DNA of 64,000 bases from Armatimonadota bacterium (lineage in GTDB: Bacteria > Armatimonadota > HRBIN16), in the NCBI GenBank assembly GCA_963677485.1, contig OY781964.1, positions 5,088,001 to 5,152,000 of the forward strand, written 5' to 3'. The position numbers and the translations under genes are program-made. The notes under the pieces are model-generated. The model saw only the letters and a list, made by a program, of their open reading frames with translations, ran no database searches and was not told the origin of the DNA. Of this stretch, positions 2,999 through 30,051 are shown one piece after another (the first letter of the stretch is position 1; each line of letters opens with the position of its first letter).

Positions 2999-3041
2999 AA
3001 AAAAGTACACGGGGGGCATACTCTACCCCCCGTGCCTTTTT
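2999..3041. terminator. Bidirectional intrinsic terminator ending the 3074-12774 operon
   Basis: Stem CACGGGGGG/CCCCCCGTG flanked by an A-tract and a T-tract. Confidence 0.8.
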
Positions 3042-3073: not shown

Positions 3074-3826
3074 TTACTCGCCCTCCATCGAACCTACGTT
3101 CAATTCGAGGTTAGCACGGTCCTCGACACGGTCGATGACACCGTCTCTAATCCACACGATACGGTCAGATACGTCCAGCATCTTCAAGTCGTGCGTTGCA
3201 GAGATAATGGTGACATTATTATCTTCGTTAAGCTCACGAAGAAGTTCGATAATCTCTTTACCTGTTTTACTGTCCAGGTTACCAGTTGGCTCGTCGGCCA
3301 GAATGATGGAAGGACTGTTAGCCAGTGCGCGAGCGCAAGCGACACGCTGCTGTTGTCCACCCGACATCTCATTGGGTTTATGATGTAATCTTTCGCCCAG
3401 ACCGACCTTCTTGAGCAGCTCAATGCCCTTGTCAATGGCATCGTCAGTGCTTAAACCGGCGAAGATCATTGGCAGGGTTACATTTTCAAGAGCAGTCATG
3501 TTTTTCAGAAGGTTGAATGTCTGGAAGATGTATCCAATAGTGCGGCAACGGAGGAACGCAAGCTCTTTAGCATCAAGCTGAGCCATGTCTACATCATTAA
3601 TAAACACACTACCGCTTGATGGTCGGTCAAGACCGCCAATCGCGTTAAAGAGTGTGGACTTACCAGAGCCAGAAGGACCCATGATGGACACATATTCGCC
3701 ACGCTTAACGTCGAGGTTCACTCCGTTCAGAGCGCGGAACGTCACCGTACCCATCGTGTATTCCTTGATGATATCTTTACAGCGAACTACATTTTCTACG
3801 CTGTCTATCTTATTATTAGACGCCAT
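3074..3826 (-). CDS. MacB/LolD-type ABC ATPase
   Basis: Walker [18 protein letters not shown], signature MSGGQQQRV, Walker [13 protein letters not shown]-loop ATHD. Confidence 0.95.
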   Translation of the reverse strand: MASNNKIDSVENVVRCKDIIKEYTMGTVTFRALNGVNLDVKRGEYVSIMGPSGSGKSTLFNAIGGLDRPSSGSVFINDVDMAQLDAKELAFLRCRTIGYIFQTFNLLKNMTALENVTLPMIFAGLSTDDAIDKGIELLKKVGLGERLHHKPNEMSGGQQQRVACARALANSPSIILADEPTGNLDSKTGKEIIELLRELNEDNNVTIISATHDLKMLDVSDRIVWIRDGVIDRVEDRANLELNVGSMEGE

Positions 3827-3853
3827 ATTACAGAAGACCCCCGAATGATTCTG

Positions 3854-4483
3854 TTAGATTTCAACCCGAAGCGCGGCAGCGGCTGGCATTTTTGAAGCGA
3901 CATACGCCGGAGCGATCGTCGCTAATACCGAAAGAATAGTGCCTATTGCCAAAGCTAGTCCAAGCAATAATAACGATGATGTCATATCCATGTAGTGAAA
4001 GACCTTCATGCCCGTTGAGAACATGCGGATGACCACTACAGATCCGAAGCCAAGTATCCAGCCTAAGACTGACGACAGCAAACCTGTCATCATCGATTCG
4101 ATAAAGAAAAGTTGAACGATGAAACCATCATAAGCACCCAAACACTTCATGGTACCTATTTCTTGATATCGCTCAGTAACTGACATCAACATGGCATTAA
4201 TAATGCCAACGAGGCACACGATCAGGCTCATGGCGGTTAACCATGTCATCCTTACCTTTTCCGAAGCGTCTATAGCTCCGCCCGAATTGGCTTGGATCAT
4301 ACCTGCGGTCTTAACAGACACAAAGAAGGCGATACCAAGTACGGTACCTGCAGCAGTGATCACTGTTCGTCCAAACCTTTGACGGACACTTTGCAGTGCG
4401 ATATGCACAGCGGTCTTCAAAGGAAGCGAAAGAGATTCACTTTTTTTCGTATTAGTATTTCTACTTGTCATGCGTTGTTGCAT
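3854..4483 (-). CDS. Small FtsX/MacB-type (type VII ABC) permease lacking a periplasmic domain
   Basis: Four hydrophobic segments. GIINAMLMSVTERYQEIGTMKCLGA coupling motif; C-terminal PAYVASKMPAAAALR. Alternative start at 4471. Confidence 0.9.
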   Translation of the reverse strand: MQQRMTSRNTNTKKSESLSLPLKTAVHIALQSVRQRFGRTVITAAGTVLGIAFFVSVKTAGMIQANSGGAIDASEKVRMTWLTAMSLIVCLVGIINAMLMSVTERYQEIGTMKCLGAYDGFIVQLFFIESMMTGLLSSVLGWILGFGSVVVIRMFSTGMKVFHYMDMTSSLLLLGLALAIGTILSVLATIAPAYVASKMPAAAALRVEI

Positions 4484-4883
4484 CCTCCAGCCGAAAACCG
4501 ATCAGTTTCCTCTCGGTCAGCATCTTCAGAAACATGCCCACAGACTTTTCCACTTCGATACGGCTCATTTTTGTGCGCACCATCATCCGTCGGATGATCG
4601 TATCCATTGTGGTTTCATCGTCAATGAAATTCCACACGCATGAGCCGATTTCATCTAATTGGATCTGCCTGAAAGGCGGTAACTTAAACATGCGCACAGC
4701 CCAGCCAAATGCTGTACCCTTCATGTTCACGGGTGCTTTAAGCAAAACATCGCCATCGACCTCAGTGATTTCCACCAAGGGATTGCGAACCGGTACCATT
4801 TTCAGAATATCACTACGATCATACTGCTGTTTATCTCGAAGCAGTGGTATTCTCTGCGTAAAGAACTGCTTTATAGAAGTCAA
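4461..4883 (-). CDS. PqqD-family / RiPP-recognition-element-like protein
   Basis: IQLDEIGSCVWNFIDDETTMDTII...VEKSVGMFLKMLTERKLI fits the PqqD winged-helix pattern. Confidence 0.8.
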   Translation of the reverse strand: MTSIKQFFTQRIPLLRDKQQYDRSDILKMVPVRNPLVEITEVDGDVLLKAPVNMKGTAFGWAVRMFKLPPFRQIQLDEIGSCVWNFIDDETTMDTIIRRMMVRTKMSRIEVEKSVGMFLKMLTERKLIGFRLEDATTHDK

Positions 4884-4884
4884 T

Positions 4885-5784
4885 TTAGTGGCACTCCACT
4901 CTGCTCAGCAGAGCTTCGAATTGTTCTGGCTGCGATCGAAAGCATCTTACCGAAATAATCGCATTTGATTCGGGACAGTGCCAAGCCGCAAACCGATGAA
5001 CCATTGGATACCTTAGCAAGGCAAAAAGAACATCCCTCGCTAACGTTGAGCCAGGTTTGCTGCGAAACTGTCCAATATACGCCTGGTGGCCGTTGATCAG
5101 CCGATCCTCGGTGGTCACCTGGTTGTATACCTTCCAGTCAGCAAACTGATTGACCCATTCCCGCACGCTCCAGCGTTTCAGACTGACGTCAGCCAATCCC
5201 CATTTTTCGACAATCACTTCTTCGGCGAATTTCTTGAATGGCATCTTGAGATACCCGGACATCATCTTAGGCTTGTCAAGAAGTAACTTCTTAGGCACTG
5301 CAAACTGAACGCCCATTAGTCCCCATACGTCCCAGCCATCGTCTGAGTGATCCGTGATCCTGTTGACCAAATCTTTATATACTGACTGAACAGGGTCTTG
5401 ATGCCGCCCCACTACTTGCCCGATGATGACCCGTCCACAGCCAGGACAGATTTTGCCGAATCCATAGACAGTTCTGTCCGCGATATAACGGTAAGCCAGG
5501 ATTCCATTACCGTCAATTGGTTCGATACGGGCTGTGAACTTTTCCTTCTTTTTCTTGGCTAGTTTTTCAACATCCGTTAAATACGCATCGACACGCCTGG
5601 CCAGATTGTCTTTTTTTCGTGAAGGCATCCATCGAAGCTCTGCGATAATACTACCAGCAGAATCAACTCTCAGAAGCCCCTCTTTACGATTACCTTGAAA
5701 ACCAGCAAAACTCCAGTCTTCAGGTAAGGTAATTCCCACGCCTTGCCAGCCAATACGCTGGTTGCGATTCGACTTCGTATTCAA
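4885..5784 (-). CDS. Hypothetical cytoplasmic protein with two internal repeats
   Basis: 299-aa ORF with a TTG start, tightly coupled to its neighbours. No signal peptide; repeated Trp/Pro and Cys/His patterns. Confidence 0.75.
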   Translation of the reverse strand: MNTKSNRNQRIGWQGVGITLPEDWSFAGFQGNRKEGLLRVDSAGSIIAELRWMPSRKKDNLARRVDAYLTDVEKLAKKKKEKFTARIEPIDGNGILAYRYIADRTVYGFGKICPGCGRVIIGQVVGRHQDPVQSVYKDLVNRITDHSDDGWDVWGLMGVQFAVPKKLLLDKPKMMSGYLKMPFKKFAEEVIVEKWGLADVSLKRWSVREWVNQFADWKVYNQVTTEDRLINGHQAYIGQFRSKPGSTLARDVLFALLRYPMVHRFAAWHCPESNAIISVRCFRSQPEQFEALLSRVECH

Positions 5785-5792
5785 ATGTTAAG

Positions 5793-6002
5793 TCAGGCCT
5801 TCTTGTCATCGGAGTGATCCGAGATAGCCGGCTTTTCATCGCCGTTAACCAGGTCGTTTGTCGCCTTCTTGAATTCCTTCAAACTCTCCCCAACAGCGTG
5901 AGCTAATTCTGGAAGCTTTTTTGCTCCAAACAGCACAAAGATGATGAGGATGATAGGCCACATCTCTGACCATGCAGGCATGTACATAAGAACCATTTCC
6001 AT
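5793..6002 (-). CDS. tatA: Twin-arginine translocase TatA/E subunit
   Basis: One TM followed by the FGAKKLPELAHAVGESLKEFKKA amphipathic helix. GAGAGG RBS before the ATG at 6002. Confidence 0.92.
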   Translation of the reverse strand: MEMVLMYMPAWSEMWPIILIIFVLFGAKKLPELAHAVGESLKEFKKATNDLVNGDEKPAISDHSDDKKA

Positions 6003-6056
6003 CGGTGTGTTTCCTCTCGGGGGCGCAGATTGCAATGCACCCCCAATTTCATTATA

Positions 6057-8057
6057 TCAATATGGCAGGTAGGATACTGATCGGCCTATGATAGCTAAAG
6101 CTATCGAAGCCATACCAATTAGTCCCATACCACACGAGAAACCGGCTAGAAGAACTGGAGCCCACATTCGCCATGTTTCAGCACCGAACCGCTTGGCGAA
6201 ATACTTCTGCGAGAGAAGTGTTCCACATAGAAGCGGGATGGTATTGTGAGGCAGTGCACCTACTCCACCAATCAGTCCGTAGTAAGTCAGCATCGGCCAC
6301 TTAAGAACCGCAAACATTCCGTAAAGCGCTAAGCCGACGCCCGCACCGATACCAATCCTGTTCAAACTCAGGGCATCCATCAACCAGCTTCGTGAAGAGT
6401 TGCCTGGTAGGTTGATCTGCTGCCATAAGGCTGACATCTGAGCGTTGAGTGGCCAGAACCGTTGAGCGTATGGGTATTGCGCCGATGGTATTTGGCTGCT
6501 GTTCCAGAAGAAACTCCAGAACAAGAAGCTGAACAATGGCACCACCAGGAAGATCGCTAACTCCGCCCACACAATACTGGTGAACTTGGTACTGGTCAGC
6601 TCAATTTCGCGGAAGCGCTGGGCGTAACCGCCGTAGTCTCCTATCGGAATAGGAGCGTACCAGATATCCACCCTGTCGTATTTCGTGGCTAAGATGCTCG
6701 CTTCTTTTAAGAACGGGAAGGAGACACCGCTACCGGTAAGTCCTATCATACGAGCACTGATATAGCTGTTCAATGGCGTCCATAACAGACCAAACGCTAT
6801 GAGTATCCAAAGCGGGAATGCCGGAACCATCTTGTGACCAATGATGATCATCGCGATGGTTGCGATCAACCAAGCTCCGAGGGCATAGTATATGGTCTTC
6901 GGTGTATCACCGCGTCCGGCAGGAATTGGTGCAAAACTGCCCCGCATCGCTTTTCTTTTCGCGTTTTCGATGAGTGTTTTTGCCACCATGACGATACCAA
7001 TAGCAGCCACAGCTAACTGTAGACCGATACCAATCGCCATCCAGAAGTCGATATTCACCGTTAGTGAGCCTTGAATTGATGACATCCCAGGATACCAGTT
7101 AGGTAAAAACCCGGTCTGCTGCAGAATAGTGTTACCGAAAATCTGGCACGCGATACTCGATATCGCCTGTCCATACACAATCTGTGCAGGAATGACAAAT
7201 CCAGTGATAAGCACACCAAGATCACCAGTCAGACCAAACAACGCACCAGGAAGAATATGTTCGATATTGGGTACAAGATCGAAGAATGGAATGGGGATTA
7301 TGGTCATGGCTTTACCGAACAATACCGAAGTAAAGATCGGTACACCAAGGTAGATAACTCCATAAATCAATCCAATAGCGGCACCAGTGGAGAATACTTT
7401 CCATCTCCAACTGTCTTCATTACCTTTACCCGCTTCCGCCAGGGCTGTCGCGCCAGAAGCAGCAACAGGAGCCATAGGGAATGGCAGCTTTTCAATATCG
7501 CTTGTGACTCGGAACAGAGCATATCCCAGCCCCATCCACATCATACGACCTAGAACTTCGAAGGCTAACAACAACGCGATCGGAATGATCCAGTCCTTGT
7601 GCATAAAGCTTCTATGCAGGATCGCGGCACTATCGGGTTGAGGTACGGCCCATCTTGGTATCTGTTCTACGATGGGAGCCGCAGCCGGAGACTGGACAAA
7701 ATATTGCAACCAGACAAGGTTAGCAAAAGGTCCACCAGATAAACCTAATCCACCTACCATACCAGTAAGTGCAGAGGCGACATAGAATAATATATATATT
7801 TCCTGGCGCTTAAGTGGGGCGAAGCTTCTTCGAGCTACTTCGGCAAAAAGCACGATGGTGACCCATTGTGCCGCCGGCCCCAAACCCTGTCCTGCCACGA
7901 GACCCAAATAGATAGCTCCGGGCATCATGATCATGGCCACGAAGAGCGTACCAAATAGCGTTCTCGAAGAGAATCCCTCTTCGAATACTACTTTGTTCTC
8001 ATCGCTAGACTGCGCTTCAGAACGTTGCCGAGCTAATACCAGTTCGTCAACAGCCAA
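6057..8057 (-). CDS. OPT/YSL-like oligopeptide transporter (polytopic membrane protein)
   Basis: Many TMs. KLPFPMAPVAASGATALAE resembles the OPT 'L.FP.G.A.A' motif. TTG start at 8057 follows GGAGG. Confidence 0.75.
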   Translation of the reverse strand: MAVDELVLARQRSEAQSSDENKVVFEEGFSSRTLFGTLFVAMIMMPGAIYLGLVAGQGLGPAAQWVTIVLFAEVARRSFAPLKRQEIYILFYVASALTGMVGGLGLSGGPFANLVWLQYFVQSPAAAPIVEQIPRWAVPQPDSAAILHRSFMHKDWIIPIALLLAFEVLGRMMWMGLGYALFRVTSDIEKLPFPMAPVAASGATALAEAGKGNEDSWRWKVFSTGAAIGLIYGVIYLGVPIFTSVLFGKAMTIIPIPFFDLVPNIEHILPGALFGLTGDLGVLITGFVIPAQIVYGQAISSIACQIFGNTILQQTGFLPNWYPGMSSIQGSLTVNIDFWMAIGIGLQLAVAAIGIVMVAKTLIENAKRKAMRGSFAPIPAGRGDTPKTIYYALGAWLIATIAMIIIGHKMVPAFPLWILIAFGLLWTPLNSYISARMIGLTGSGVSFPFLKEASILATKYDRVDIWYAPIPIGDYGGYAQRFREIELTSTKFTSIVWAELAIFLVVPLFSFLFWSFFWNSSQIPSAQYPYAQRFWPLNAQMSALWQQINLPGNSSRSWLMDALSLNRIGIGAGVGLALYGMFAVLKWPMLTYYGLIGGVGALPHNTIPLLCGTLLSQKYFAKRFGAETWRMWAPVLLAGFSCGMGLIGMASIALAIIGRSVSYLPY

Positions 8058-8135
8058 CGGATTAACCTCCCTATCGCACCGTTTAGATTGCACCTGCCGG
8101 TGCTTACTCTTACGAGAAGTTGATGATATCTTCAT

Positions 8136-8174
8136 GTCTTAGGAGAGCGATACGAAATACCGCTCTCCTAAGAC
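8136..8174. other. Intra-operon perfect 14-bp stem-loop
   Basis: GTCTTAGGAGAGCG-N11-CGCTCTCCTAAGAC, with no U-tract on the transcribed strand. Confidence 0.8.
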
Positions 8175-8187
8175 TATCGGGTTCAAT

Positions 8188-11100
8188 TTAAGTGTTCTGG
8201 GCTTCTACTGCTATATTCTCATCGAAATAGCGGTTTCGGTCCTCTGCACTTAACGTTCGCCAGATCAGGAACTGCTTTCGCAGAGTATTCATAAAGCGTC
8301 GGTTGACGCGTTTCCAGTTGGCGATGTCACCGCTTAACCGCGTAAGGGTTAAGGTCAGCGAATAGATGTCATCGGTGTCAGTCGGTTCTGCACTGATGAG
8401 AACTGTCTGGCTTACGCCTAAGTCAAACGGAGCCAGCCATGCAGTACAACCTATGGAATAAGCACGTCCGTGCTCTTTCATGTAGTTGTCTGTCGTGACA
8501 GACTGTGTGACAAAATCGCCCACAGAATAGTCTTCATAGGCACTCAACCACTCGCCCAGGAAGGAGCTTAAACCGGTAGCTTGAACTTGATTTACTGAGA
8601 ACGGCATGGGGATTACCCATTCGTCACCCTCAGGATCAGGTGTGTGCCAGTTACGATCCAAGGCAGGCGATGCCACCTCAGACGCCTTACGAGCAGGATA
8701 TATGGTTGATAGGAGAACTGTAGCCACTACCACTAAGGTGGAGACTACTGCCGACATCGACGAGAAGTTGAGATATAAGCCTTCGATCTTGAGTAAGACA
8801 ATGGCTTTTGCACTCAACTGCGCGACAAAGTAGCCCGTAACCGAACCAACGATCGCATAGACCAGTGATTCTGCAAAGAACAACAGACCGATGTGTGTCG
8901 GTGATAGACCGAGTGAACTGAAGATGTGAATCTCCTTCACACGTTCGAACACCGAGCTGAGCATGGTCTGAAGACAGATCATGGCAGCGATCAGGATCGG
9001 GATGATCACGAACTCAATACCACGCCCAGAAGTCGCAGCCAGTGTAGAGAACCGCCATATCTGCGGACCCTGACCTGAATAGATATTCAAGCCGAGGCGG
9101 GGCATTAATTTATCAAGAACACCCTTTACCTCCTTCTTATTAGCAAAGGAGATAGCGATAGACCGGATCTCCCCACCCTGGTTCATCAGAGTGCGGTACG
9201 GTAGATAGAAGACACTATCCGGTTCAAGGTGAACGTATTCACGGAACCCAGATTCTTGACCGCCTCCACTACCACCGCCGGCTTTGTTACCCATTTTGTT
9301 CATGAGCAGGAAGTCGACAGGGGTTAAAGGTTCCTGGTCAAGGTCTGTTACTGTCTTGAACTTGCCACTGTCGAGGATTCCGATGACGTTGTACTCCATA
9401 CCGTTGAAACGGACAGAGACTTTCCCGACATCTTCAACTCCAACACGCAGAGATTCAGCAACACCGCTAGGAAGTATGGTTACATAGCGGTCACCATCTT
9501 GGAACCAGCGGCCCGCTTTCAGGGCACGTTGTGGCCGCGTGACTTGAGCTTCATCTGGAGTCAGGCCGACAATTGACTTCACATCATATTGTCTGTCACC
9601 TTTGCGCACAGCGAATGAGCTCTGCTCTCCATAGGCAACACCATAGAACCAAGCCCTCGGAGCTACCGCGCGGTCGCGGAACTCGTCGCTTAGCAGACGG
9701 TATGCCGGGTCTTGCAGAGGTTCCCAAAGTGCCGTTCTAATCATGATTCCGTTGTAGTCCGCAACACCCGGTGCACGCACCTGGTTGAAGCGGAGCACAT
9801 TCACGATTGAAGTAAAGGATAGCACGATGAACGTCAGCATGATCAGCGTGATGCTGGTCAATATAGTCCGAGCTTTTCGCCTGCGCATGTTTGACACGCC
9901 CAGGTTAAACGCCGCAAATGCGACACTAACTCGTCCAATATCGGCCCGGTGAACGCCACTCATCTGTTTGTTGATCTGTTTGAGTTGTTCCTCAAACTTG
10001 CCCATAATCATGGCCGTAACCAATCCAGATAGAGCCAGCATGACGAAGGCCAAGAAGACCACCGCAAGGTTACTGACTAACTGGAAGGCAGGGTGTATCC
10101 GACTGAACAAGAGGAACACAACAACGAAGATACCAAGGGCGGCCATCAACTGGTTGCGCAGATTTGGGAAGCCGAAGAACAACCTCTCCATAAAGAACGC
10201 GAATGGCAACAGTAATGCCATGTAGAAGATGACTCCTCTAACCACGTCATTCGCCGTCGCTTGCACGTCTGGATAGGCTCTGGCTTCATAACCCCAGGCT
10301 GCTCGACTATAGATGTCGAACTTGGCATAGTCTTTGGCGACGAGAGCAGCACGTGCCATGTCAAGTGATTTCTTTGACATCGCATGAAGCTGTTCGAGCC
10401 CCTCGTTGATAATTCGGAATTTCCGGAGTTTGGTCATGCGGTACTCATCAAGAGTCCACATGTCTTCAGCTACACGGAAAGCAGTATTAGTGATGACACC
10501 ACCAGCCGCGAAGTTATCGCGGTCACCGTAGTTCTTATTCTTCTGACCGAAACCAACCTCTTTAGCCACACCCTGAACGCGGTAGCCAATACCTTCCGGG
10601 TCTTGCTTAGTGGAGTTGATCATCACAAAGCGTGTGGCACCAGGCCCCACACCCATGATCAGCTTAATGCGGGAACCAGGCTGTGAAAAGACAACAGCCA
10701 CGTCCTCAACATAAGAGGTCATCAAGTAGTCTTGCTGGGTTGCTAAAGCCCAACCATACATACGTGGAGTACCATTGGTTTCGGCATCCAGCACGTTCAT
10801 GGTTGTCAAAGCACGCAAGGCTTGCTGATCGACCAAGTCAAAGAGCGAAGTAGGCACGCAGTTGAACACTACGATACGGCTTGTCTTTTGTCCTGTTGTG
10901 ACAGGAAAATCAACAGGATATTCTACGGCTCCCTGAGCACCTTGGTCGGGTGCAAAGTCGATGTTACCGGTGGTTCGATCGACTCGGTATGCTGCAACCG
11001 ATGTAGGGCGGTTCCATCCATAAGCTGTGACAGGTGCCACACCTGGGAACCGGTACTCGGCCTTATCATTTACGATCTGTATCAGGTTACCGCGCACACC

Positions 11101-12774
11101 TGCAAATGTCTTCGTGGCGTGTCGAACGACAGCTAGACTGTCCAGAACCGGTTCTTTGGGGATGAAGCTCTTTTTAGGTTCAAAACGGACAACCTGCCCG
11201 CTGATCGTAGAAAAGCCTCCCTGCAAGCCCATTCTCTGGAAGTTACCGGGTTCATCAATTGCGAAGTGAGGAAGTGCGGGGTCTTGAACATTGTTAGGAT
11301 CATTAAATACATGCCACAGAATACCTGACAGTAGTTTGGTCTGCATAGCCACGTTTGAGTAGTTCACCCTGTTCGGGGTGTCAAACGGCGTGTCTACCAT
11401 AGGTCGACTGTCATCGGTGGTGCAGAATGTAATCCCATTCGCCCCTGATAGTGTGACTAGCTCCGCATCAAAAGCATACTTACCGGCGAGGTAGTTCCGC
11501 CAGATTTTACCGTCAACGGGGTTAACACCATCGGCAAACATACGTGATCCGGCCAAACCCAGTGCGGCTAGAACCTTATCGGAATTTTCACGACATATTC
11601 GAGAGAGGTCAGAAAATCTATTCTGGACATCTTCGCGCATGTCATAGAAATAGCCTTTATAGAACAGTCCAACTTGCTTGTTTCGGCTGGAGATATCCAA
11701 ACCGGCCCACAAGTAGATGTCCATCAAGTCTTTTTGCTTAGGTTTGATGCCGACCGCTTTCAGCATAGACATGAACAGCTTCTGGCCCACGTTTGGCCTC
11801 TCGAGGCGGTTCATGTGTCTATCCATCCACTGTCGGATGCCTTCAAGGGAGGTAAAGTGTCCGCCTGTAGCGACGAACATGATGCTTCGCTTTGGCTTTT
11901 CTTTGGCGTATGTACGCGCAAGCTCAAGCATGGAAGCTATGCCGCAGGCACTTTCAGCACCCGGCGCGATAGCTGGAACCACTGACATCGAATCGAAATA
12001 AGAAGACAGAACAATCACTTGCTTGGACATCTTAGGGTCAGAACCCTTTATCCAGGCGATGACGTTCCTGCCCTCTTTTTTCTGCCATTGCATGGAGCAG
12101 GACAGCTTGCCAGGGAGCTCTTGGTTAGAAGCACAAAGTGCCATCAAAGGCACAGCATCACTCTTGCGTATGAAGAAACGAGGCACATTTACCGGAATTC
12201 CGATAAACTTCGCTTCAGATTCCCCACGCATCGTGTCGTCTGGCTCAACGAAAACCACCGCCTTCGCACCTAAGCGGGGAGCATTCAACCATTCGGTTCC
12301 TGAGTTATAGTTAACGAGGACGATACTACCCTGAACACGCTTACCGCTGAAGTTCGGGAGTTTCCCATCACCCACATAAATAACGGAACCACTCACACCT
12401 TCAGGAGGAAGTTGTGATGTTCGAACGAGGTTAGGCCACAGAGCATTTAAGTGAATAGATTTTCCATTCACTTGAAGCACTGATCCCTGGTCAACAGGAA
12501 CGCTGACAGGGAAAGACTCCGTAGTGATGTCTGTAAGCCCGATGGTACGGAATTGATCGGCTACCCAACCGGCCGCCTTGTCGGCACCGGGGTAACCACA
12601 AACGCGGCTGTCAATAGCAGACAAACTATTAACTGTTGTACGGATACGAGTTGTATCAACACTGTTCGCGAGGCGCATATAGTCTGGGCTGGTTACAGGT
12701 GCTTGTGCGTAAGCGATCGTAGAAACAGCCGAAACTAAGAGCATCCAACGAAGCGCCTTCCGGATAATCATCAT
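8188..12774 (-). CDS. Giant M28-peptidase-like/PA ectodomain fused to an FtsX/MacB permease
   Basis: Sec signal (..STIAYA/Q). PA-like segment (VIYVGDG..GSIVLV..GAKAVVF) and M28-like core (NVIAWIKGSD..VIVLSSYFDS..PGA). Then 3 TMs and a MacB module (NMRRRKARTILT, SSVFERVKEIHIFSSLGLSP, YPARKAS). GAGGAG RBS before the ATG at 12774. Confidence 0.85.
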   Translation of the reverse strand: MMIIRKALRWMLLVSAVSTIAYAQAPVTSPDYMRLANSVDTTRIRTTVNSLSAIDSRVCGYPGADKAAGWVADQFRTIGLTDITTESFPVSVPVDQGSVLQVNGKSIHLNALWPNLVRTSQLPPEGVSGSVIYVGDGKLPNFSGKRVQGSIVLVNYNSGTEWLNAPRLGAKAVVFVEPDDTMRGESEAKFIGIPVNVPRFFIRKSDAVPLMALCASNQELPGKLSCSMQWQKKEGRNVIAWIKGSDPKMSKQVIVLSSYFDSMSVVPAIAPGAESACGIASMLELARTYAKEKPKRSIMFVATGGHFTSLEGIRQWMDRHMNRLERPNVGQKLFMSMLKAVGIKPKQKDLMDIYLWAGLDISSRNKQVGLFYKGYFYDMREDVQNRFSDLSRICRENSDKVLAALGLAGSRMFADGVNPVDGKIWRNYLAGKYAFDAELVTLSGANGITFCTTDDSRPMVDTPFDTPNRVNYSNVAMQTKLLSGILWHVFNDPNNVQDPALPHFAIDEPGNFQRMGLQGGFSTISGQVVRFEPKKSFIPKEPVLDSLAVVRHATKTFAGVRGNLIQIVNDKAEYRFPGVAPVTAYGWNRPTSVAAYRVDRTTGNIDFAPDQGAQGAVEYPVDFPVTTGQKTSRIVVFNCVPTSLFDLVDQQALRALTTMNVLDAETNGTPRMYGWALATQQDYLMTSYVEDVAVVFSQPGSRIKLIMGVGPGATRFVMINSTKQDPEGIGYRVQGVAKEVGFGQKNKNYGDRDNFAAGGVITNTAFRVAEDMWTLDEYRMTKLRKFRIINEGLEQLHAMSKKSLDMARAALVAKDYAKFDIYSRAAWGYEARAYPDVQATANDVVRGVIFYMALLLPFAFFMERLFFGFPNLRNQLMAALGIFVVVFLLFSRIHPAFQLVSNLAVVFLAFVMLALSGLVTAMIMGKFEEQLKQINKQMSGVHRADIGRVSVAFAAFNLGVSNMRRRKARTILTSITLIMLTFIVLSFTSIVNVLRFNQVRAPGVADYNGIMIRTALWEPLQDPAYRLLSDEFRDRAVAPRAWFYGVAYGEQSSFAVRKGDRQYDVKSIVGLTPDEAQVTRPQRALKAGRWFQDGDRYVTILPSGVAESLRVGVEDVGKVSVRFNGMEYNVIGILDSGKFKTVTDLDQEPLTPVDFLLMNKMGNKAGGGSGGGQESGFREYVHLEPDSVFYLPYRTLMNQGGEIRSIAISFANKKEVKGVLDKLMPRLGLNIYSGQGPQIWRFSTLAATSGRGIEFVIIPILIAAMICLQTMLSSVFERVKEIHIFSSLGLSPTHIGLLFFAESLVYAIVGSVTGYFVAQLSAKAIVLLKIEGLYLNFSSMSAVVSTLVVVATVLLSTIYPARKASEVASPALDRNWHTPDPEGDEWVIPMPFSVNQVQATGLSSFLGEWLSAYEDYSVGDFVTQSVTTDNYMKEHGRAYSIGCTAWLAPFDLGVSQTVLISAEPTDTDDIYSLTLTLTRLSGDIANWKRVNRRFMNTLRKQFLIWRTLSAEDRNRYFDENIAVEAQNT

Positions 12775-12947
12775 TCGCAAACCGCTCCTCAGTGTGGTTC
12801 TTAGCATTTGGCGCAGATGCGCCTTAATGAATAATAACAGAAAGTAGGCGTGAAGTGGTAATGCCTACTCTATCTCGAAATCGGGTATAATTTGTTACCC
12901 ATGAGGGTTTCTGAGCTTGAGGGCTCCCCTCGCCGAACCTGCAGTGT

Positions 12948-14412: not shown

Positions 14413-14974
14413 CTTCAGCTTGCAGCAACAAGATACCATACTGGCCCGCCTGAAAGCGACAAGCTTCGGGCGGGCTGCCGTTTTCTTTGACCGTGATGGC
14501 GTCTTGAATGAGGAAGTTGGATATCTCCACTCCCCCAGCAGATTTATCTGGCGCAAAGGAGCCGAACGCTGCATCCACGCCGTTAATCGGGCAGGGTTGC
14601 TCGCTATCATCATCACCAACCAAGGTGGGATCGCACGCTCCATGTATACGGAACACGATGTGCGCCAACTCCACTTTTGGATGCAAACCCAGCTTCAGCC
14701 GCATCACGCTCATCTTGATGCATTCTATTATTGTCCTCATCACGACGAAGGTGACATTCCGCATCTCGCCATAGATTGTCCAAACCGTAAACCAAATCCA
14801 GGAATGCTGTTGAAGGCCGCTAACCAATGGGGTATCAACTTACCAAACAGCATCATGCTGGGTGATAAACGGCGTGACATGGAGGCGGCATCTAATGCCG
14901 GAGTGTTGGGTTTAATGGTCGATGACCATACATTAGATGATCTCGCTTCGTTGCTTGAGCAGCACCACGAATGA
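14402..14974 (+). CDS. gmhB: GmhB-like HAD-IIIA sugar bisphosphate phosphatase
   Basis: FFDRDGVLN, ITNQGGIAR, YYCPHH..CPNRKPNPGML, GDKRRD. Start uncertain (14402 or 14420). Confidence 0.85.
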   Translation: MRGSFSLQQQDTILARLKATSFGRAAVFFDRDGVLNEEVGYLHSPSRFIWRKGAERCIHAVNRAGLLAIIITNQGGIARSMYTEHDVRQLHFWMQTQLQPHHAHLDAFYYCPHHDEGDIPHLAIDCPNRKPNPGMLLKAANQWGINLPNSIMLGDKRRDMEAASNAGVLGLMVDDHTLDDLASLLEQHHE

Positions 14975-16422
14975 GCCAGGTTGAGAACCGGTACAAAAGT
15001 GTAGTTTCAGGCCTCAAGTGGCTTACGTTGGCCTCTATTGGCGGCCGTATCATCACATTTGGGATGGGCATCATCCTTGCCCGTTATTACTTAACCCCTG
15101 CCCAGTTTGGTTTGGTCAACATGGCAGCGATCAGCGTGATGGCATTTGACCTGATCCGCGACTTTGGACTTGTAGAAGCGCTCCTCAAGCGTGAACAACT
15201 GAACGATGAAGCCGCAGATACTGCATTCTGGTTATTGACAGTTTTCGCATCAATGGCAGCCGCGGTAGTGATTATACTGGCTCCGCATATTGCCCAAGTA
15301 TTCCATGAACCCGCTCTGGCCAGTTATCTTTATGTCATGTGTCTGTCCTTGGTTACCAACGGGCTCGCGGCTGTGCCATTAGCCCTTCTTCAAAAGCAAG
15401 ACAGATGGAAGGCCTATGCCTCGGCAGATGCGGTCTTCGCCATTGCTGGTTCGGCCACAGTTCTGCTTTTAGCGATCATGGGGGCTCGCGAGTGGTCACT
15501 GGTGATTGGAATAGTGCTAAAGGGGATCATCCAAACATCGTATGCCTGGTGGCTGATAAAATGGCATCCAAAACTGAAGTTTTCGGTTAAAACAGCCAAA
15601 GAGATGCTCGGTTTCGGTAAATGGGTCACGGCGGTCCGGTTCCCTGACCTCTTCATGTATTTCGCGGACAACGCCTATTTGGGCCGATATGCCGGCAAAC
15701 AGAATCTGGGTTATTACTCTCAGCCTTATAACTGGATACAACAGCCGCTCACTCTATTTGTCAGCCAGGTTGGTAAGGCTCTATACCCCAACCTTGCGAA
15801 AAGCCATGATGACCTGGAACGAAGGGACCTGTTTTTAAAAAGCTATCAACTACTGTGTTGGCTCGTAGTTCCGTTGTATGCGTTTCTGGGATGTCATGCT
15901 CAACTATTTGTAGATGTCATCTACGGTCCAAAATGGGCGCCGTCAGGCAAGATACTGGTGTGGCTGTGTGCAGCAGCGACCGTAAGGGCGTTAACAGCCG
16001 ATGGTCTACAGGGTTACTTCTGGGCTAGCAACCGCGGCAAGCAATATGCCTGGCCGATATGGGTGTCCATTCTATTTATTTTTGGAGCCATGGTTTACAG
16101 CCAAGGAAAGTGGGATGGCCGACAGATCGCCATGCTGTTTACGGCCGGCATCAGCCTTCGGGGGATTATCAACCTGATGTTGTTAAGCACGAAATCGGTG
16201 AAGTTGACAGGTGCCACAGTACAGAAGCTGATGGTTGCATTCTGGCCATGTGCTTTATTGGCTTGGAGCTGTCATTATCTCGTTACACTTTATATCGCTA
16301 ACATGACACTACAGCTTATATCATCAATGATGTTGTATGGTGCAGGAATATTACTACTTTACGTAGGAATAACAAAGAAATTGGTCAAACTGTCTGTATC
16401 AAGACAGGATACTAATAGTTAA
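14971..16422 (+). CDS. Wzx-type polysaccharide flippase (MOP superfamily)
   Basis: GLKW..ILARYYLTPAQFGL..DFGL..AL, about 12-14 TMs, YGPKW motif. Confidence 0.88.
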   Translation: MSQVENRYKSVVSGLKWLTLASIGGRIITFGMGIILARYYLTPAQFGLVNMAAISVMAFDLIRDFGLVEALLKREQLNDEAADTAFWLLTVFASMAAAVVIILAPHIAQVFHEPALASYLYVMCLSLVTNGLAAVPLALLQKQDRWKAYASADAVFAIAGSATVLLLAIMGAREWSLVIGIVLKGIIQTSYAWWLIKWHPKLKFSVKTAKEMLGFGKWVTAVRFPDLFMYFADNAYLGRYAGKQNLGYYSQPYNWIQQPLTLFVSQVGKALYPNLAKSHDDLERRDLFLKSYQLLCWLVVPLYAFLGCHAQLFVDVIYGPKWAPSGKILVWLCAAATVRALTADGLQGYFWASNRGKQYAWPIWVSILFIFGAMVYSQGKWDGRQIAMLFTAGISLRGIINLMLLSTKSVKLTGATVQKLMVAFWPCALLAWSCHYLVTLYIANMTLQLISSMMLYGAGILLLYVGITKKLVKLSVSRQDTNS

Positions 16423-18918: not shown

Positions 18919-18994
18919 TGGTGAGCCGGCAGGGACTCGAACCCTGGACCCACGCCTTAAAAGGGCGTTGCTCTACCAACTGAGCTACCGGCTC
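18919..18994 (-). tRNA. tRNA-Lys(TTT)
   Basis: Reverse complement GAGCCGGTAGCTCAGTTGGTAGAGCAACGCC-CTTTTAA-GGCGTGGGTCCAGGGTTCGAGTCCCTGCCGGCTCACCA; 76 nt ending in CCA. Confidence 0.97.
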
Positions 18995-29966: not shown

Positions 29967-30051
29967 GCCGAAGTGGCGGAATCGGTAGACGCGCGCGACT
30001 CAAAATCGTGTGCCTTCGGGCTTGAGGGTTCGAGTCCCTCCTTCGGCACCA
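29967..30051 (+). tRNA. tRNA-Leu(CAA)
   Basis: GCCGAAGTGGCGGAATCGGTAGACGCG-CGCGA-CTCAAAA-TCGTG, long variable arm, GGTTCGAGTCCC, CCA end. Confidence 0.97.

Follow-up and report, generated by a model that had tools for sequence, protein, structure and literature searches.

The window analysed here is a stretch of 64,000 nucleotides (nt) from the genome of an Armatimonadota bacterium (assembly GCA_963677485.1, contig OY781964.1, positions 5,088,001 to 5,152,000), and our subject is a run of seven co-oriented open reading frames (ORFs) on its minus strand, G1 to G7, which spans 3074-12807 and combines parts of an ATP-binding cassette (ABC) transporter with an OPT-fold permease. We consider the chances evenly balanced that six of these genes, with tatA (G3) set aside, represent the single-copy core of an undescribed and widely conserved envelope system. 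The genes are tightly packed, with 52 nt between G1 and G2, 21 between G2 and G3, 8 between G3 and G4 and a single nucleotide between G4 and G5; G5 and G6 overlap by 23 nt, and 27 nt separate G6 from G7. Just after G7 the operon is closed by a hairpin with a T run that resembles an intrinsic terminator (3007-3035, minus strand), whose 12 pairs, 8 of them G-C, enclose a loop of 5 and, read from 3035 to 3007, lead into the tail ACTTTTTTAC. The 140 nt upstream of G1 (12808-12947) form a divergent intergenic region, which we presume to be the promoter region, and a scan for consensus promoters upstream of G1 returned weak matches alone, at or below shuffled expectation. Contigs from four bioreactor metatranscriptome libraries, derived from a close relative and 95-99% alike, cover 22-26 of 30 bins and touch all seven genes, with individual contigs bridging G1/G2 (8073-8901 and 7901-8772), G3/G4 (5390-5837), G4/G5/G6 (4152-4948) and G6/G7 (3558-4091). 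This fits expression of the operon as a single unit; the two end bins, which lie in neighbouring genes, were without RNA cover in all four runs and were not used to place transcript ends. An earlier first-pass annotation had described seven co-oriented, tightly spaced genes followed by a terminator, as the ORF coordinates and the hairpin now confirm. Six modules were named in its title (an M28-MacB fusion, an OPT, TatA, a RiPP recognition element (RRE, where RiPP stands for ribosomally synthesised and post-translationally modified peptide), a mini-FtsX and an ATPase), and these domain calls are borne out by the Pfam and NCBIfam matches, folds and profiles described below; the seventh gene, G4, went unnamed there and its conserved membership was missed.

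G1 (8188-12807, minus strand) encodes 1539 residues, in which a signal peptide, a PA/M28-like ectodomain and a MacB-type permease are joined in one chain; M12 or M13 are alternative starts, giving the end at 12774 that was first annotated. The N-terminus is an ordinary Sec-type signal peptide that lacks a twin-arginine motif. Pfam detects M28 at 2.2e-10, covering profile positions 1-78 of 193 alone, and FtsX at 1.2e-13 over residues 1266-1376, and a phmmer search of the PDB with G1 finds the aminopeptidase 2ek8 at 4.8e-11. When a profile of 12 G1 sequences was compared with the PDB, the ectodomain matched the PA-M28 aminopeptidase 2ek8 (2e-22), YwaD, Nicalin (3e-7) and TfR1 (4e-6), and the permease module matched MacB (5lil, 2.2e-15) together with LolF, LolC and YtrF; MacB_PCD and PA domains are also found in G1 homologues. 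Hydropathy places three extra transmembrane helices, unusually conserved, at 855-934, then a cytoplasmic linker, a MacB-type first transmembrane helix at 986-1004, a periplasmic domain of about 250 residues (roughly 1005-1260), helices two to four at 1266-1369 and, after the fourth, a cytoplasmic domain of 160 residues. About 500 residues of the ectodomain beyond the PA/M28-like domain match nothing, and residues 354-980 and the tail at 1378-1539 gave no usable match in Pfam, PDB sequences or the Atlas. Relatives of G1 are numerous: the scoring of 8000 candidates gave no fewer than 1706 clusters at E<=1e-10, and they are annotated solely as FtsX-like permease, M28 family peptidase, antimicrobial peptide transport permease or hypothetical protein.

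The ectodomain departs from active M28 enzymes at the motifs that would be expected to bind metal. Aligned to 2ek8, SHHDS becomes SSYFDS in G1, NDDASG becomes A-ESACG and AEENG becomes GGHFT, and the consensus of 12 homologues reads AYYDS, GAESACG and TSGHF at these places. The co-catalytic zinc ligands and the catalytic Glu of M28 enzymes we take to be H-x-D, D, E-E, D/E and H; G1 lacks the pattern of an active M28 aminopeptidase at the three aligned motifs, the last two ligand positions lying outside the alignment. Judged by these motifs, the canonical di-zinc site is not kept in G1, which is not equal to the absence of all metal.

A further likeness concerns the membrane part of the same protein. 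Residues 858-1520 of G1 (8248-10236 of the window), that is, the extra transmembrane helices, the permease and most of the tail, match the PADLOC model PDLC01991, 'CARF_m8--CARF_LolE_TM', at 1.8e-53, and there is a weaker match to the model 'CARF_Beta-galactosidase_LolE_TM'. The match shows that relatives of this membrane part have been catalogued in a domain survey, and it may point to a larger family in which giant LolE-type permeases carry exchangeable ectodomains. The name 'CARF_m8' could suggest a cyclic-nucleotide sensor, a reading that we did not adopt, the term being absent from the literature searched. When the whole operon was scanned with defence models, nothing besides G1 rose above general ATPase similarity.

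The last two genes supply the remaining parts of an ABC complex. G6 (3854-4483, minus strand; 209 residues) is a minimal FtsX-type permease, with a Pfam FtsX match of 1.7e-16 at residues 84-200, four transmembrane helices by hydropathy and no periplasmic domain; its NCBIfam matches to MacB, LolC/E and FtsX are weak and far under the cut-offs. G7 (3074-3826, minus strand; 250 residues) is an ABC ATPase of the LolD/MacB/FtsE type, matching Pfam ABC_tran at 8.2e-34 and, among NCBIfam models, LolD, MacB, DevA and FtsE best. Against TIGR02211 (LolD) it scores 8.4e-72 and 241 bits, and because the cut-off is 307.75 we do not regard it as a LolD equivalog. Its translation reads intact Walker A, signature, Walker B (D-E) and H-loop motifs, as would be expected of the nucleotide-binding subunit of a type VII ABC transporter. 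The arrangement that defines a type VII permease, a first transmembrane helix, an extracytoplasmic domain and three C-terminal transmembrane helices, is also found here, G6 itself having no extracytoplasmic domain. It is strongly supported that G1, G6 and G7 are parts of a heterodimeric type VII (MacB/Lol/FtsEX-type) ABC complex.

G2 (6057-8135, minus strand) is a polytopic membrane protein of 692 residues whose relationships emerge from its predicted fold. It has no Pfam or NCBIfam match, with nothing to Pfam OPT at E<=1, and its sequence profile found no match in the PDB. The AlphaFold2 model, of medium confidence (pLDDT 75.9), was compared with solved structures by Foldseek and found barley YS1 (7wst/7wsr) at E 7e-11, with TM-scores of 0.62/0.70 and a probability of 1.00 over 673-683 columns; every other PDB match to the model had a TM-score of 0.13 or less, the next in rank having 0.12. 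Since the model matches YS1 over its whole length, the earlier 'OPT-like' call is right at the level of fold. By sequence the link to the family is thin: Pfam OPT (PF03169) is matched, at 1.5e-5, by one of 16 G2 relatives and not by G2 itself, and in the Atlas clusters nearest to G2 the domain is carried by 15-33% of members. A complex prediction for G2 with residues 840-1010 of G1 scored 0.08 against a mark of 0.32 and, having been run without controls, is evidence neither way.

Two further genes encode proteins that would lie on the cytoplasmic side. G4 (4885-5784, minus strand; 299 residues) belongs to no named family, with no Pfam or NCBIfam match, and has no transmembrane segment by hydropathy; its alignment shows conserved Cys at 113, 116, about 270 and 298. 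The AlphaFold2 model (pLDDT 90.4) is a tandem of PsbP/Mog1-like domains, for which Foldseek found PsbP (1v2b, E 1.4e-4, TM-score to the target 0.56), TplEi (5h7z) and Mog1. The family is large: a library of 1.84 billion proteins contains 1860 of its representatives at E<=1e-3. G5 (4461-4883, minus strand; 140 residues) is a full protein of the PqqD/RRE type; its match to Pfam PqqD reaches 2.5e-8 and 34.6 bits, above the cut-off of 23.4, and its profile finds the lasso RRE TbiB1 (5v1u, 1.2e-7) and PqqD (3g2b, 7.4e-5) in the PDB. That G4 and G5 are soluble proteins of the cytoplasm, conserved alongside the permeases, is strongly supported. An RRE-like protein might suggest a RiPP cluster, yet no maturase family occurs among the operon genes or their neighbours, and the operon leaves no room for a precursor gene. 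The window had been said to contain no TatC and no MacA/TolC, which genome profile searches bear out; they also show that G5 is the sole PqqD-family gene in the genome.

What unites these dissimilar parts is their conservation as a set, which we call the cassette. Among 20 loci sampled from 19 Armatimonadota genomes, ten carry G1-G2-G4-G6-G7 in the same order, nine of these with G5 as well; two more end at a contig edge after G4 or G5, four have G1-G2 alone, one reads G6-G7-G1-G2 and three hold G2 alone. A wider scan with a G2 alignment, taking one genome per species, recovered at least 583 relatives among 599 candidate stretches, of which the best 80 loci were examined. G1 lies directly upstream of G2 in 42 of the 59 of these loci that have at least 5 kb upstream. 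Where both flanks are present (48 loci), 27 hold G1, G4, G6 and G7, 24 of them also G5; G1 occurs without downstream G4, G6 or G7 in 7, and G2 stands alone in 13. G1-G2 is also present in metagenome-assembled genomes (MAGs) labelled Desantisbacteria (L085), WS1 (L109), Brocadiia (L091), Planctomycetota (L095) and Nitrospiraceae (L106), and in L085 and L109 the G6-G7 pair stands ahead of G1-G2. The cassette also occurs in MAGs with the labels Chthonomonas, Armatimonas, Capsulimonadaceae and Abditibacterium. The first-pass annotation had made its proposal depend on synteny in other genomes, and synteny is what we find, across the Armatimonadota for the gene order and beyond the phylum for G1-G2. 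Because the same order recurs in so many other genomes, the arrangement is not a product of chance.

Joint presence and absence tell a similar story. Of 151 Armatimonadota genomes in one sample, 127 have G2, 125 have the G1 ectodomain and 123 have G4; all genomes positive for G1 or G4 fall within the G2-positive set, 122 hold all three and 24 hold none. Two G2-positive genomes give no G1 match (G074 and G147) and four give no G4 match (G083, G105, G119 and G147), and absences of the cassette are spread over at least nine families of the phylum. In two genomes (G025 and G040) G2 is alone at its locus and G1 and G4 lie on other contigs, so these genes are kept or lost together even when unlinked.

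Some loci of the cassette carry additional genes. One bacterial family has a 282-residue protein, itself of no protein family, between G2 and G4 (L013:1278-2126 and L021:8124-8972), and in a sister genus a DUF2752 protein separates G1 from G2 (L028:8506-8907). Searches with these lineage-specific insertions, and with a third of 189 residues in L017, yielded no function. The Nitrospiraceae-labelled MAG carries genes for a SIR2_2 protein and a KaiC-like ATPase after its G1-G2 (L106:11586-14572); they resemble a pair of the defence type and are probably unrelated.

The same pattern of occurrence extends to a family encoded outside the operon. The window's genome has ten genes of the DUF6785/DUF6784 type, all dispersed and 640-700 residues in length (L116-L125 of G000:C1, for example L117:7834-9891 and L123:7975-9921), and none was found in 14 control genomes. 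DUF6785 occurs in 127 of the 151 Armatimonadota genomes, a set identical to that of the G2-positive genomes, and 24 genomes lack G1, G2, G4 and DUF6785 alike. It is usually multi-copy in this phylum, with at least nine scored copies and up to 58 first-look candidates at the upper end. In a second phylum, sampled as 81 genomes around a Brocadiia MAG (G155), G2 is present in 14 and DUF6785 in 13: both occur in 13, G2 alone in one, DUF6785 alone in none and neither in 67. The coordinates in eight of these genomes (G155, G171, G174, G178, G189, G204, G230 and G234) fit DUF6785-G1-G2 or G2-DUF6785 on one contig. DUF6785 stands directly before G1 in the Brocadiia locus L091 (DUF6785-G1-G2), and the Desantisbacteria locus L085 reads G5-G6-G7-DUF6785-G1-G2, with a 673-residue DUF6785+DUF6784 protein between G7 and G1. 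All four out-of-phylum genomes with G1-G2 that were searched have several DUF6785 matches (9, 5, 14 and 3). G2 itself has no match to PF20581 or PF20580; in the Atlas, DUF6785 clusters lie near G2 (0.87), a proximity that we treat as a lead only. That the DUF6785/DUF6784 permeases are a further member of the system, outside the operon here and missed by the first-pass annotation, is part of the reading to which we give even chances.

The neighbours of the DUF6785 genes offer some indication of what they might carry. At six of the ten loci in the window's genome the largest neighbouring ORF resembles a carbohydrate-active enzyme (CAZyme), namely GH15, DUF6259+NPCBM, GH116, an arabinofuranosidase-like protein, GH27+NPCBM and DUF4838+GH2_N, and in three of the six it is co-oriented and within 240 nt of the DUF6785 gene. 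Apparent operons were seen at three loci, in which DUF6785 is accompanied by DUF6259+NPCBM, by a CBM4_9 protein and by DUF4838+GH2_N. When ten arbitrary 10-kb stretches of the same genome were used as a control, the largest ORF was CAZyme-like in three, and because a genome so rich in glycoside hydrolases gives this figure at arbitrary sites, the link to glycans is only suggestive. Candidate substrates are peptides, oligosaccharides and chelates.

If these parts do work together, a mechanism can be sketched by analogy with better-known systems. A G7 dimer would sit on the G1/G6 heterodimer, as in LolCDE, and ATP hydrolysis by G7 would drive the mechanotransmission typical of type VII ABC transporters, moving the G1/G6 pair and the outer domains of G1. 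The M28-like ectodomain, with its altered site residues, might then serve as a tethered substrate receptor or gate that feeds OPT-fold permeases. These permeases would carry the substrate across the membrane, G2 as the constant subunit and the DUF6785 paralogues as exchangeable, substrate-specific ones, and G4 and G5 may couple or regulate the motor at its cytoplasmic face. The hand-over between receptor and OPT channel that the first-pass annotation proposed, and its role for the RRE as a chaperone, are likewise hypothetical. That the system imports oligomeric nutrients seems to us possible and somewhat doubtful. A more specific version, in which a single motor of G1, G6 and G7 with G2 gates or energises interchangeable, dispersed DUF6785/DUF6784 OPT-like permeases, is on the unlikely side of our estimates.

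Several observations weigh against the existence of such a system or against this account of its action. Physical contact between any two of the parts is hypothetical, and both the direction of transport and the substrate are our inference only. The genomes counted are kin and hence not independent, so the co-occurrence figures overstate the number of events. The RNA-library contigs are no proof of one transcript, since such libraries may contain DNA. At the altered M28 motifs D272, E285 and H317 are conserved, and some metal binding or residual activity is possible. Homology between G2 and DUF6785 is weakly supported, with an hhalign probability of 28.6% and E 6e-4, collinear over 544 columns. 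An enrichment of CAZymes at the DUF6785 loci was considered and set aside, six in ten against three in ten not being a significant difference.

Among other explanations, the one that fares best would reverse the direction of transport. The RRE-type G5 and G4 would bind a peptide or lipid-linked molecule in the cytoplasm, the OPT-fold proteins would move it outward and the MacB-type pair would extract it from the outer leaflet and pass it to the ectodomain, in the manner of Lol export. The type VII ABC systems characterised to date, LolCDE (PMC8333309) and YbbAP-TesA (PMC12646458) among them, remove substrates from the membrane or periplasm by extraction or expulsion and do not import them. Such a role would suit two proteins on the cytoplasmic side, a peptide binder of the RRE type and an adaptor of the PsbP/Mog1 type, and the combination of two unlike permeases with a LolD-like ATPase is reminiscent of LolCDE. 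However, neither a precursor-peptide gene nor a maturase is found in or beside the operon, G5 is the sole PqqD-family gene in the genome, and the OPT/YSL transporters studied so far are importers. Many dispersed DUF6785 paralogues also suit diverse nutrients better than one exported product, and we judge export or extraction to be unlikely.

A second alternative, distinctly unlikely in our estimation, is that the motor transports nothing and acts as a regulator like FtsEX, switching the dead-enzyme ectodomain so as to activate or restrain an extracellular hydrolase or surface partner, with the OPT-fold permeases importing the products on their own. The M28 fold with altered metal-site motifs in G1 would fit this, and other catalytically dead M28-like domains act as receptors within membrane-bound complexes; two such proteins, Nicalin and TfR1, are among the matches of the G1 profile. 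FtsEX is likewise described as acting through partners that are catalytically inactive or auto-inhibited (PMC11491553, PMC10694151, PMC11139282). On the other side, the cassette contains no conserved secreted hydrolase gene, and regulation alone leaves the tight co-occurrence of G2, G4, G5 and DUF6785 with G1 unexplained.

The seven-part machine of the first-pass annotation, with TatA serving the OPT-like channel as a dedicated accessory in the membrane, we consider very unlikely. G3 (5793-6035, minus strand; 80 residues) is a tatA by its matches to Pfam TatA_B_E (3.7e-17) and, at 57.7 bits, to TIGR01411, whose cut-off is 53.9. It is retained between G2 and G4 in every closest-relative locus that covers the interval (L027-L030 and L031-L037), and RNA-library contigs run from G4 into tatA, as an accessory role would predict. 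Yet these 11 loci (L027-L037), with a G2 identity of 68-94%, are the sole cases in 100 loci examined; no tatA match was found in the remaining 89, and in L011 and L012 G2 and G4 nearly abut, with no room for it. The absence of a twin-arginine motif from the signal peptide of G1 counts against the accessory role as well. The window's genome has two TatA-family matches and a single TatC, 3.4 Mb away, and neither tatA copy is near tatC. Exactly two TatA-family matches were found in each of six genomes checked (the window's genome and five others); the paralogues lie within 500 nt of each other in all three genomes of other families, and one of them lies inside the cassette in all three genomes of the window's family. 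As each genome has exactly two matches, G3 would be a standard gene in a new place and no additional copy; of the housekeeping pair of tatA genes, one has probably moved into the operon in one family, and this relocation is why we remove TatA from the machine. The other TatA-family gene (L111:1483-1884, G000:C1 about 1306275-1306676) encodes 133 residues with a long Ser/Pro-rich tail and, from its length alone, is read as TatB-like; it is followed by a 76-residue membrane ORF, putatively SecG-like.

That functionally unrelated genes merely share an operon is the least probable explanation, to which we give almost no weight: the families of the parts usually serve separate pathways and contact between the parts is hypothetical, but their order persists in different families and phyla of bacteria, and they are present or absent jointly even when not adjacent.

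The surroundings of the operon are ordinary. On one side lie genes for an aminotransferase, a type II dehydroquinase and an M24 peptidase, and on the other, across the 140-nt divergent region, a hexapeptide-transferase gene and YebC. A flippase-type polysaccharide-biosynthesis gene (Polysacc_synt_3, 14971-16422, plus strand) is found on the opposite strand 2 kb upstream of the operon. An Rfam search of the whole window at the gathering threshold found no riboswitch near the operon, and its sole matches are tRNA genes at 18922-18994 (minus strand) and 29967-30048 (plus strand). Elsewhere in the genome, three further loci caught our attention. Five consecutive paralogous ORFs of 727, 239, 243, 239 and 494 residues (cluster F2) occupy L121:654-6985 (G000:C1 about 321150-327480, minus strand), the 494-residue member having no Pfam match. 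At L122:5997-7994 (G000:C1 about 710400-712400) a 665-residue frame with RNase III, dsRBD and APH-type phosphotransferase domains, which may be two genes read as one, directly precedes a DUF6785 gene. One of the control stretches, finally, encodes a 1923-residue non-ribosomal peptide synthetase with domains of the A-T-C-A-T-TE type (L132:381-6152, G000:C1 about 2695380-2701150).

Returning to the cassette, it would appear to be a type VII ABC system with a composition that we have not found in print. Full-text searches of a library with few subscription journals yielded no paper on this gene set, and the first-pass annotation, too, knew of no characterised system with this composition. The cassette is present in about five of every six Armatimonadota genomes sampled, as well as in MAGs labelled as several other phyla, and its members amount to thousands of sequence clusters. 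Two transport principles not known to cooperate meet in it, the type VII ABC mechanotransducer on one side and permeases of the OPT fold on the other. If motor and permeases prove to be physically coupled, the known range of ABC motor activity would be widened, and the cassette could explain how oligomers are taken up or handled in poorly studied polymer-degrading phyla. Were one motor to serve many permeases, this would represent a new class of ATP-dependent uptake with a modular logic like that of ECF or TonB systems, and the first ABC motor to drive permeases with a secondary-transporter fold. In either case, the pattern of presence and absence and the layout of the operon supply concrete lists of subunits for biochemistry.

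Comparison with characterised systems shows where the cassette overlaps with each of them and where it departs. LolCDE is similar in plan, with two different FtsX-type permeases, one LolD-like ATPase gene, no MacA/TolC at the locus and, on the side of sequence, matches of the G1 permease profile to LolC and LolF chains. The scores nevertheless fall short of the equivalog models (17-37 bits against 362 for lolCE, 241 against 307.75 for LolD). G6 has no periplasmic domain, whereas G1 adds an ectodomain of about 820 residues, three transmembrane helices and a tail in the cytoplasm; a partner of the LolA/LolB type was not seen, and the tie to OPT-fold permeases has no counterpart in Lol. With FtsEX (EnvC, PcsB, RipC) the cassette may share a type VII motor that the reports cited above describe as moving an inactive or auto-inhibited extracytoplasmic domain. 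The dead-enzyme domain is here fused to the permease, however, and is M28/PA-like in place of LytM or CHAP; the FtsX and FtsE NCBIfam scores lie below the cut-offs, and the cassette has no cell-wall hydrolase gene. MacB (5lil) is the best solved-structure match of the G1 permease module and G1 homologues carry MacB_PCD, but in contrast to MacAB-TolC the ATPase is a separate protein and the tripartite set is missing from the window: a search for OEP and HlyD_D23 found none inside it, the nearest lying about 13 kb past its end, and the genome elsewhere has about eight OEP genes and 13 HlyD-type genes, of which a distant one may be used.

The other parts can be compared in the same way. The G2 model superposes on barley YS1 (7wst) over its whole length, although sequence identity is 12-13% and G2 is encoded with an ABC motor, whereas known OPTs act alone as secondary transporters. 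G5 exceeds the Pfam PqqD cut-off and its profile matches the TbiB1 and PqqD structures, as for a RiPP recognition element, but it has no precursor peptide, radical SAM enzyme, protease or cyclase beside it and reaches 29 bits against a cut-off of 80 for the lasso PqqD model. The PADLOC CARF_LolE_TM models share residues 858-1520 of G1, positions 684-810 of the PDLC01991 profile having no counterpart in G1. Nicalin, nicastrin and TfR1 are catalytically inactive M28/PA-like proteins that serve as receptors or gatekeepers; the G1 ectodomain profile matches Nicalin and TfR1, and its metal-site motifs are altered, though these are eukaryotic single-pass proteins with no ABC-permease fusion. The folds of ECF group II and TonB-ExbBD systems are unrelated to those of the cassette, and contact between its motor and the DUF6785 proteins is hypothetical, so the likeness is one of logic only. 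Both of those systems use one single-copy energising module with many dispersed paralogous membrane components, and the window's genome, with one cassette and ten dispersed DUF6785 genes, is laid out in the same way.

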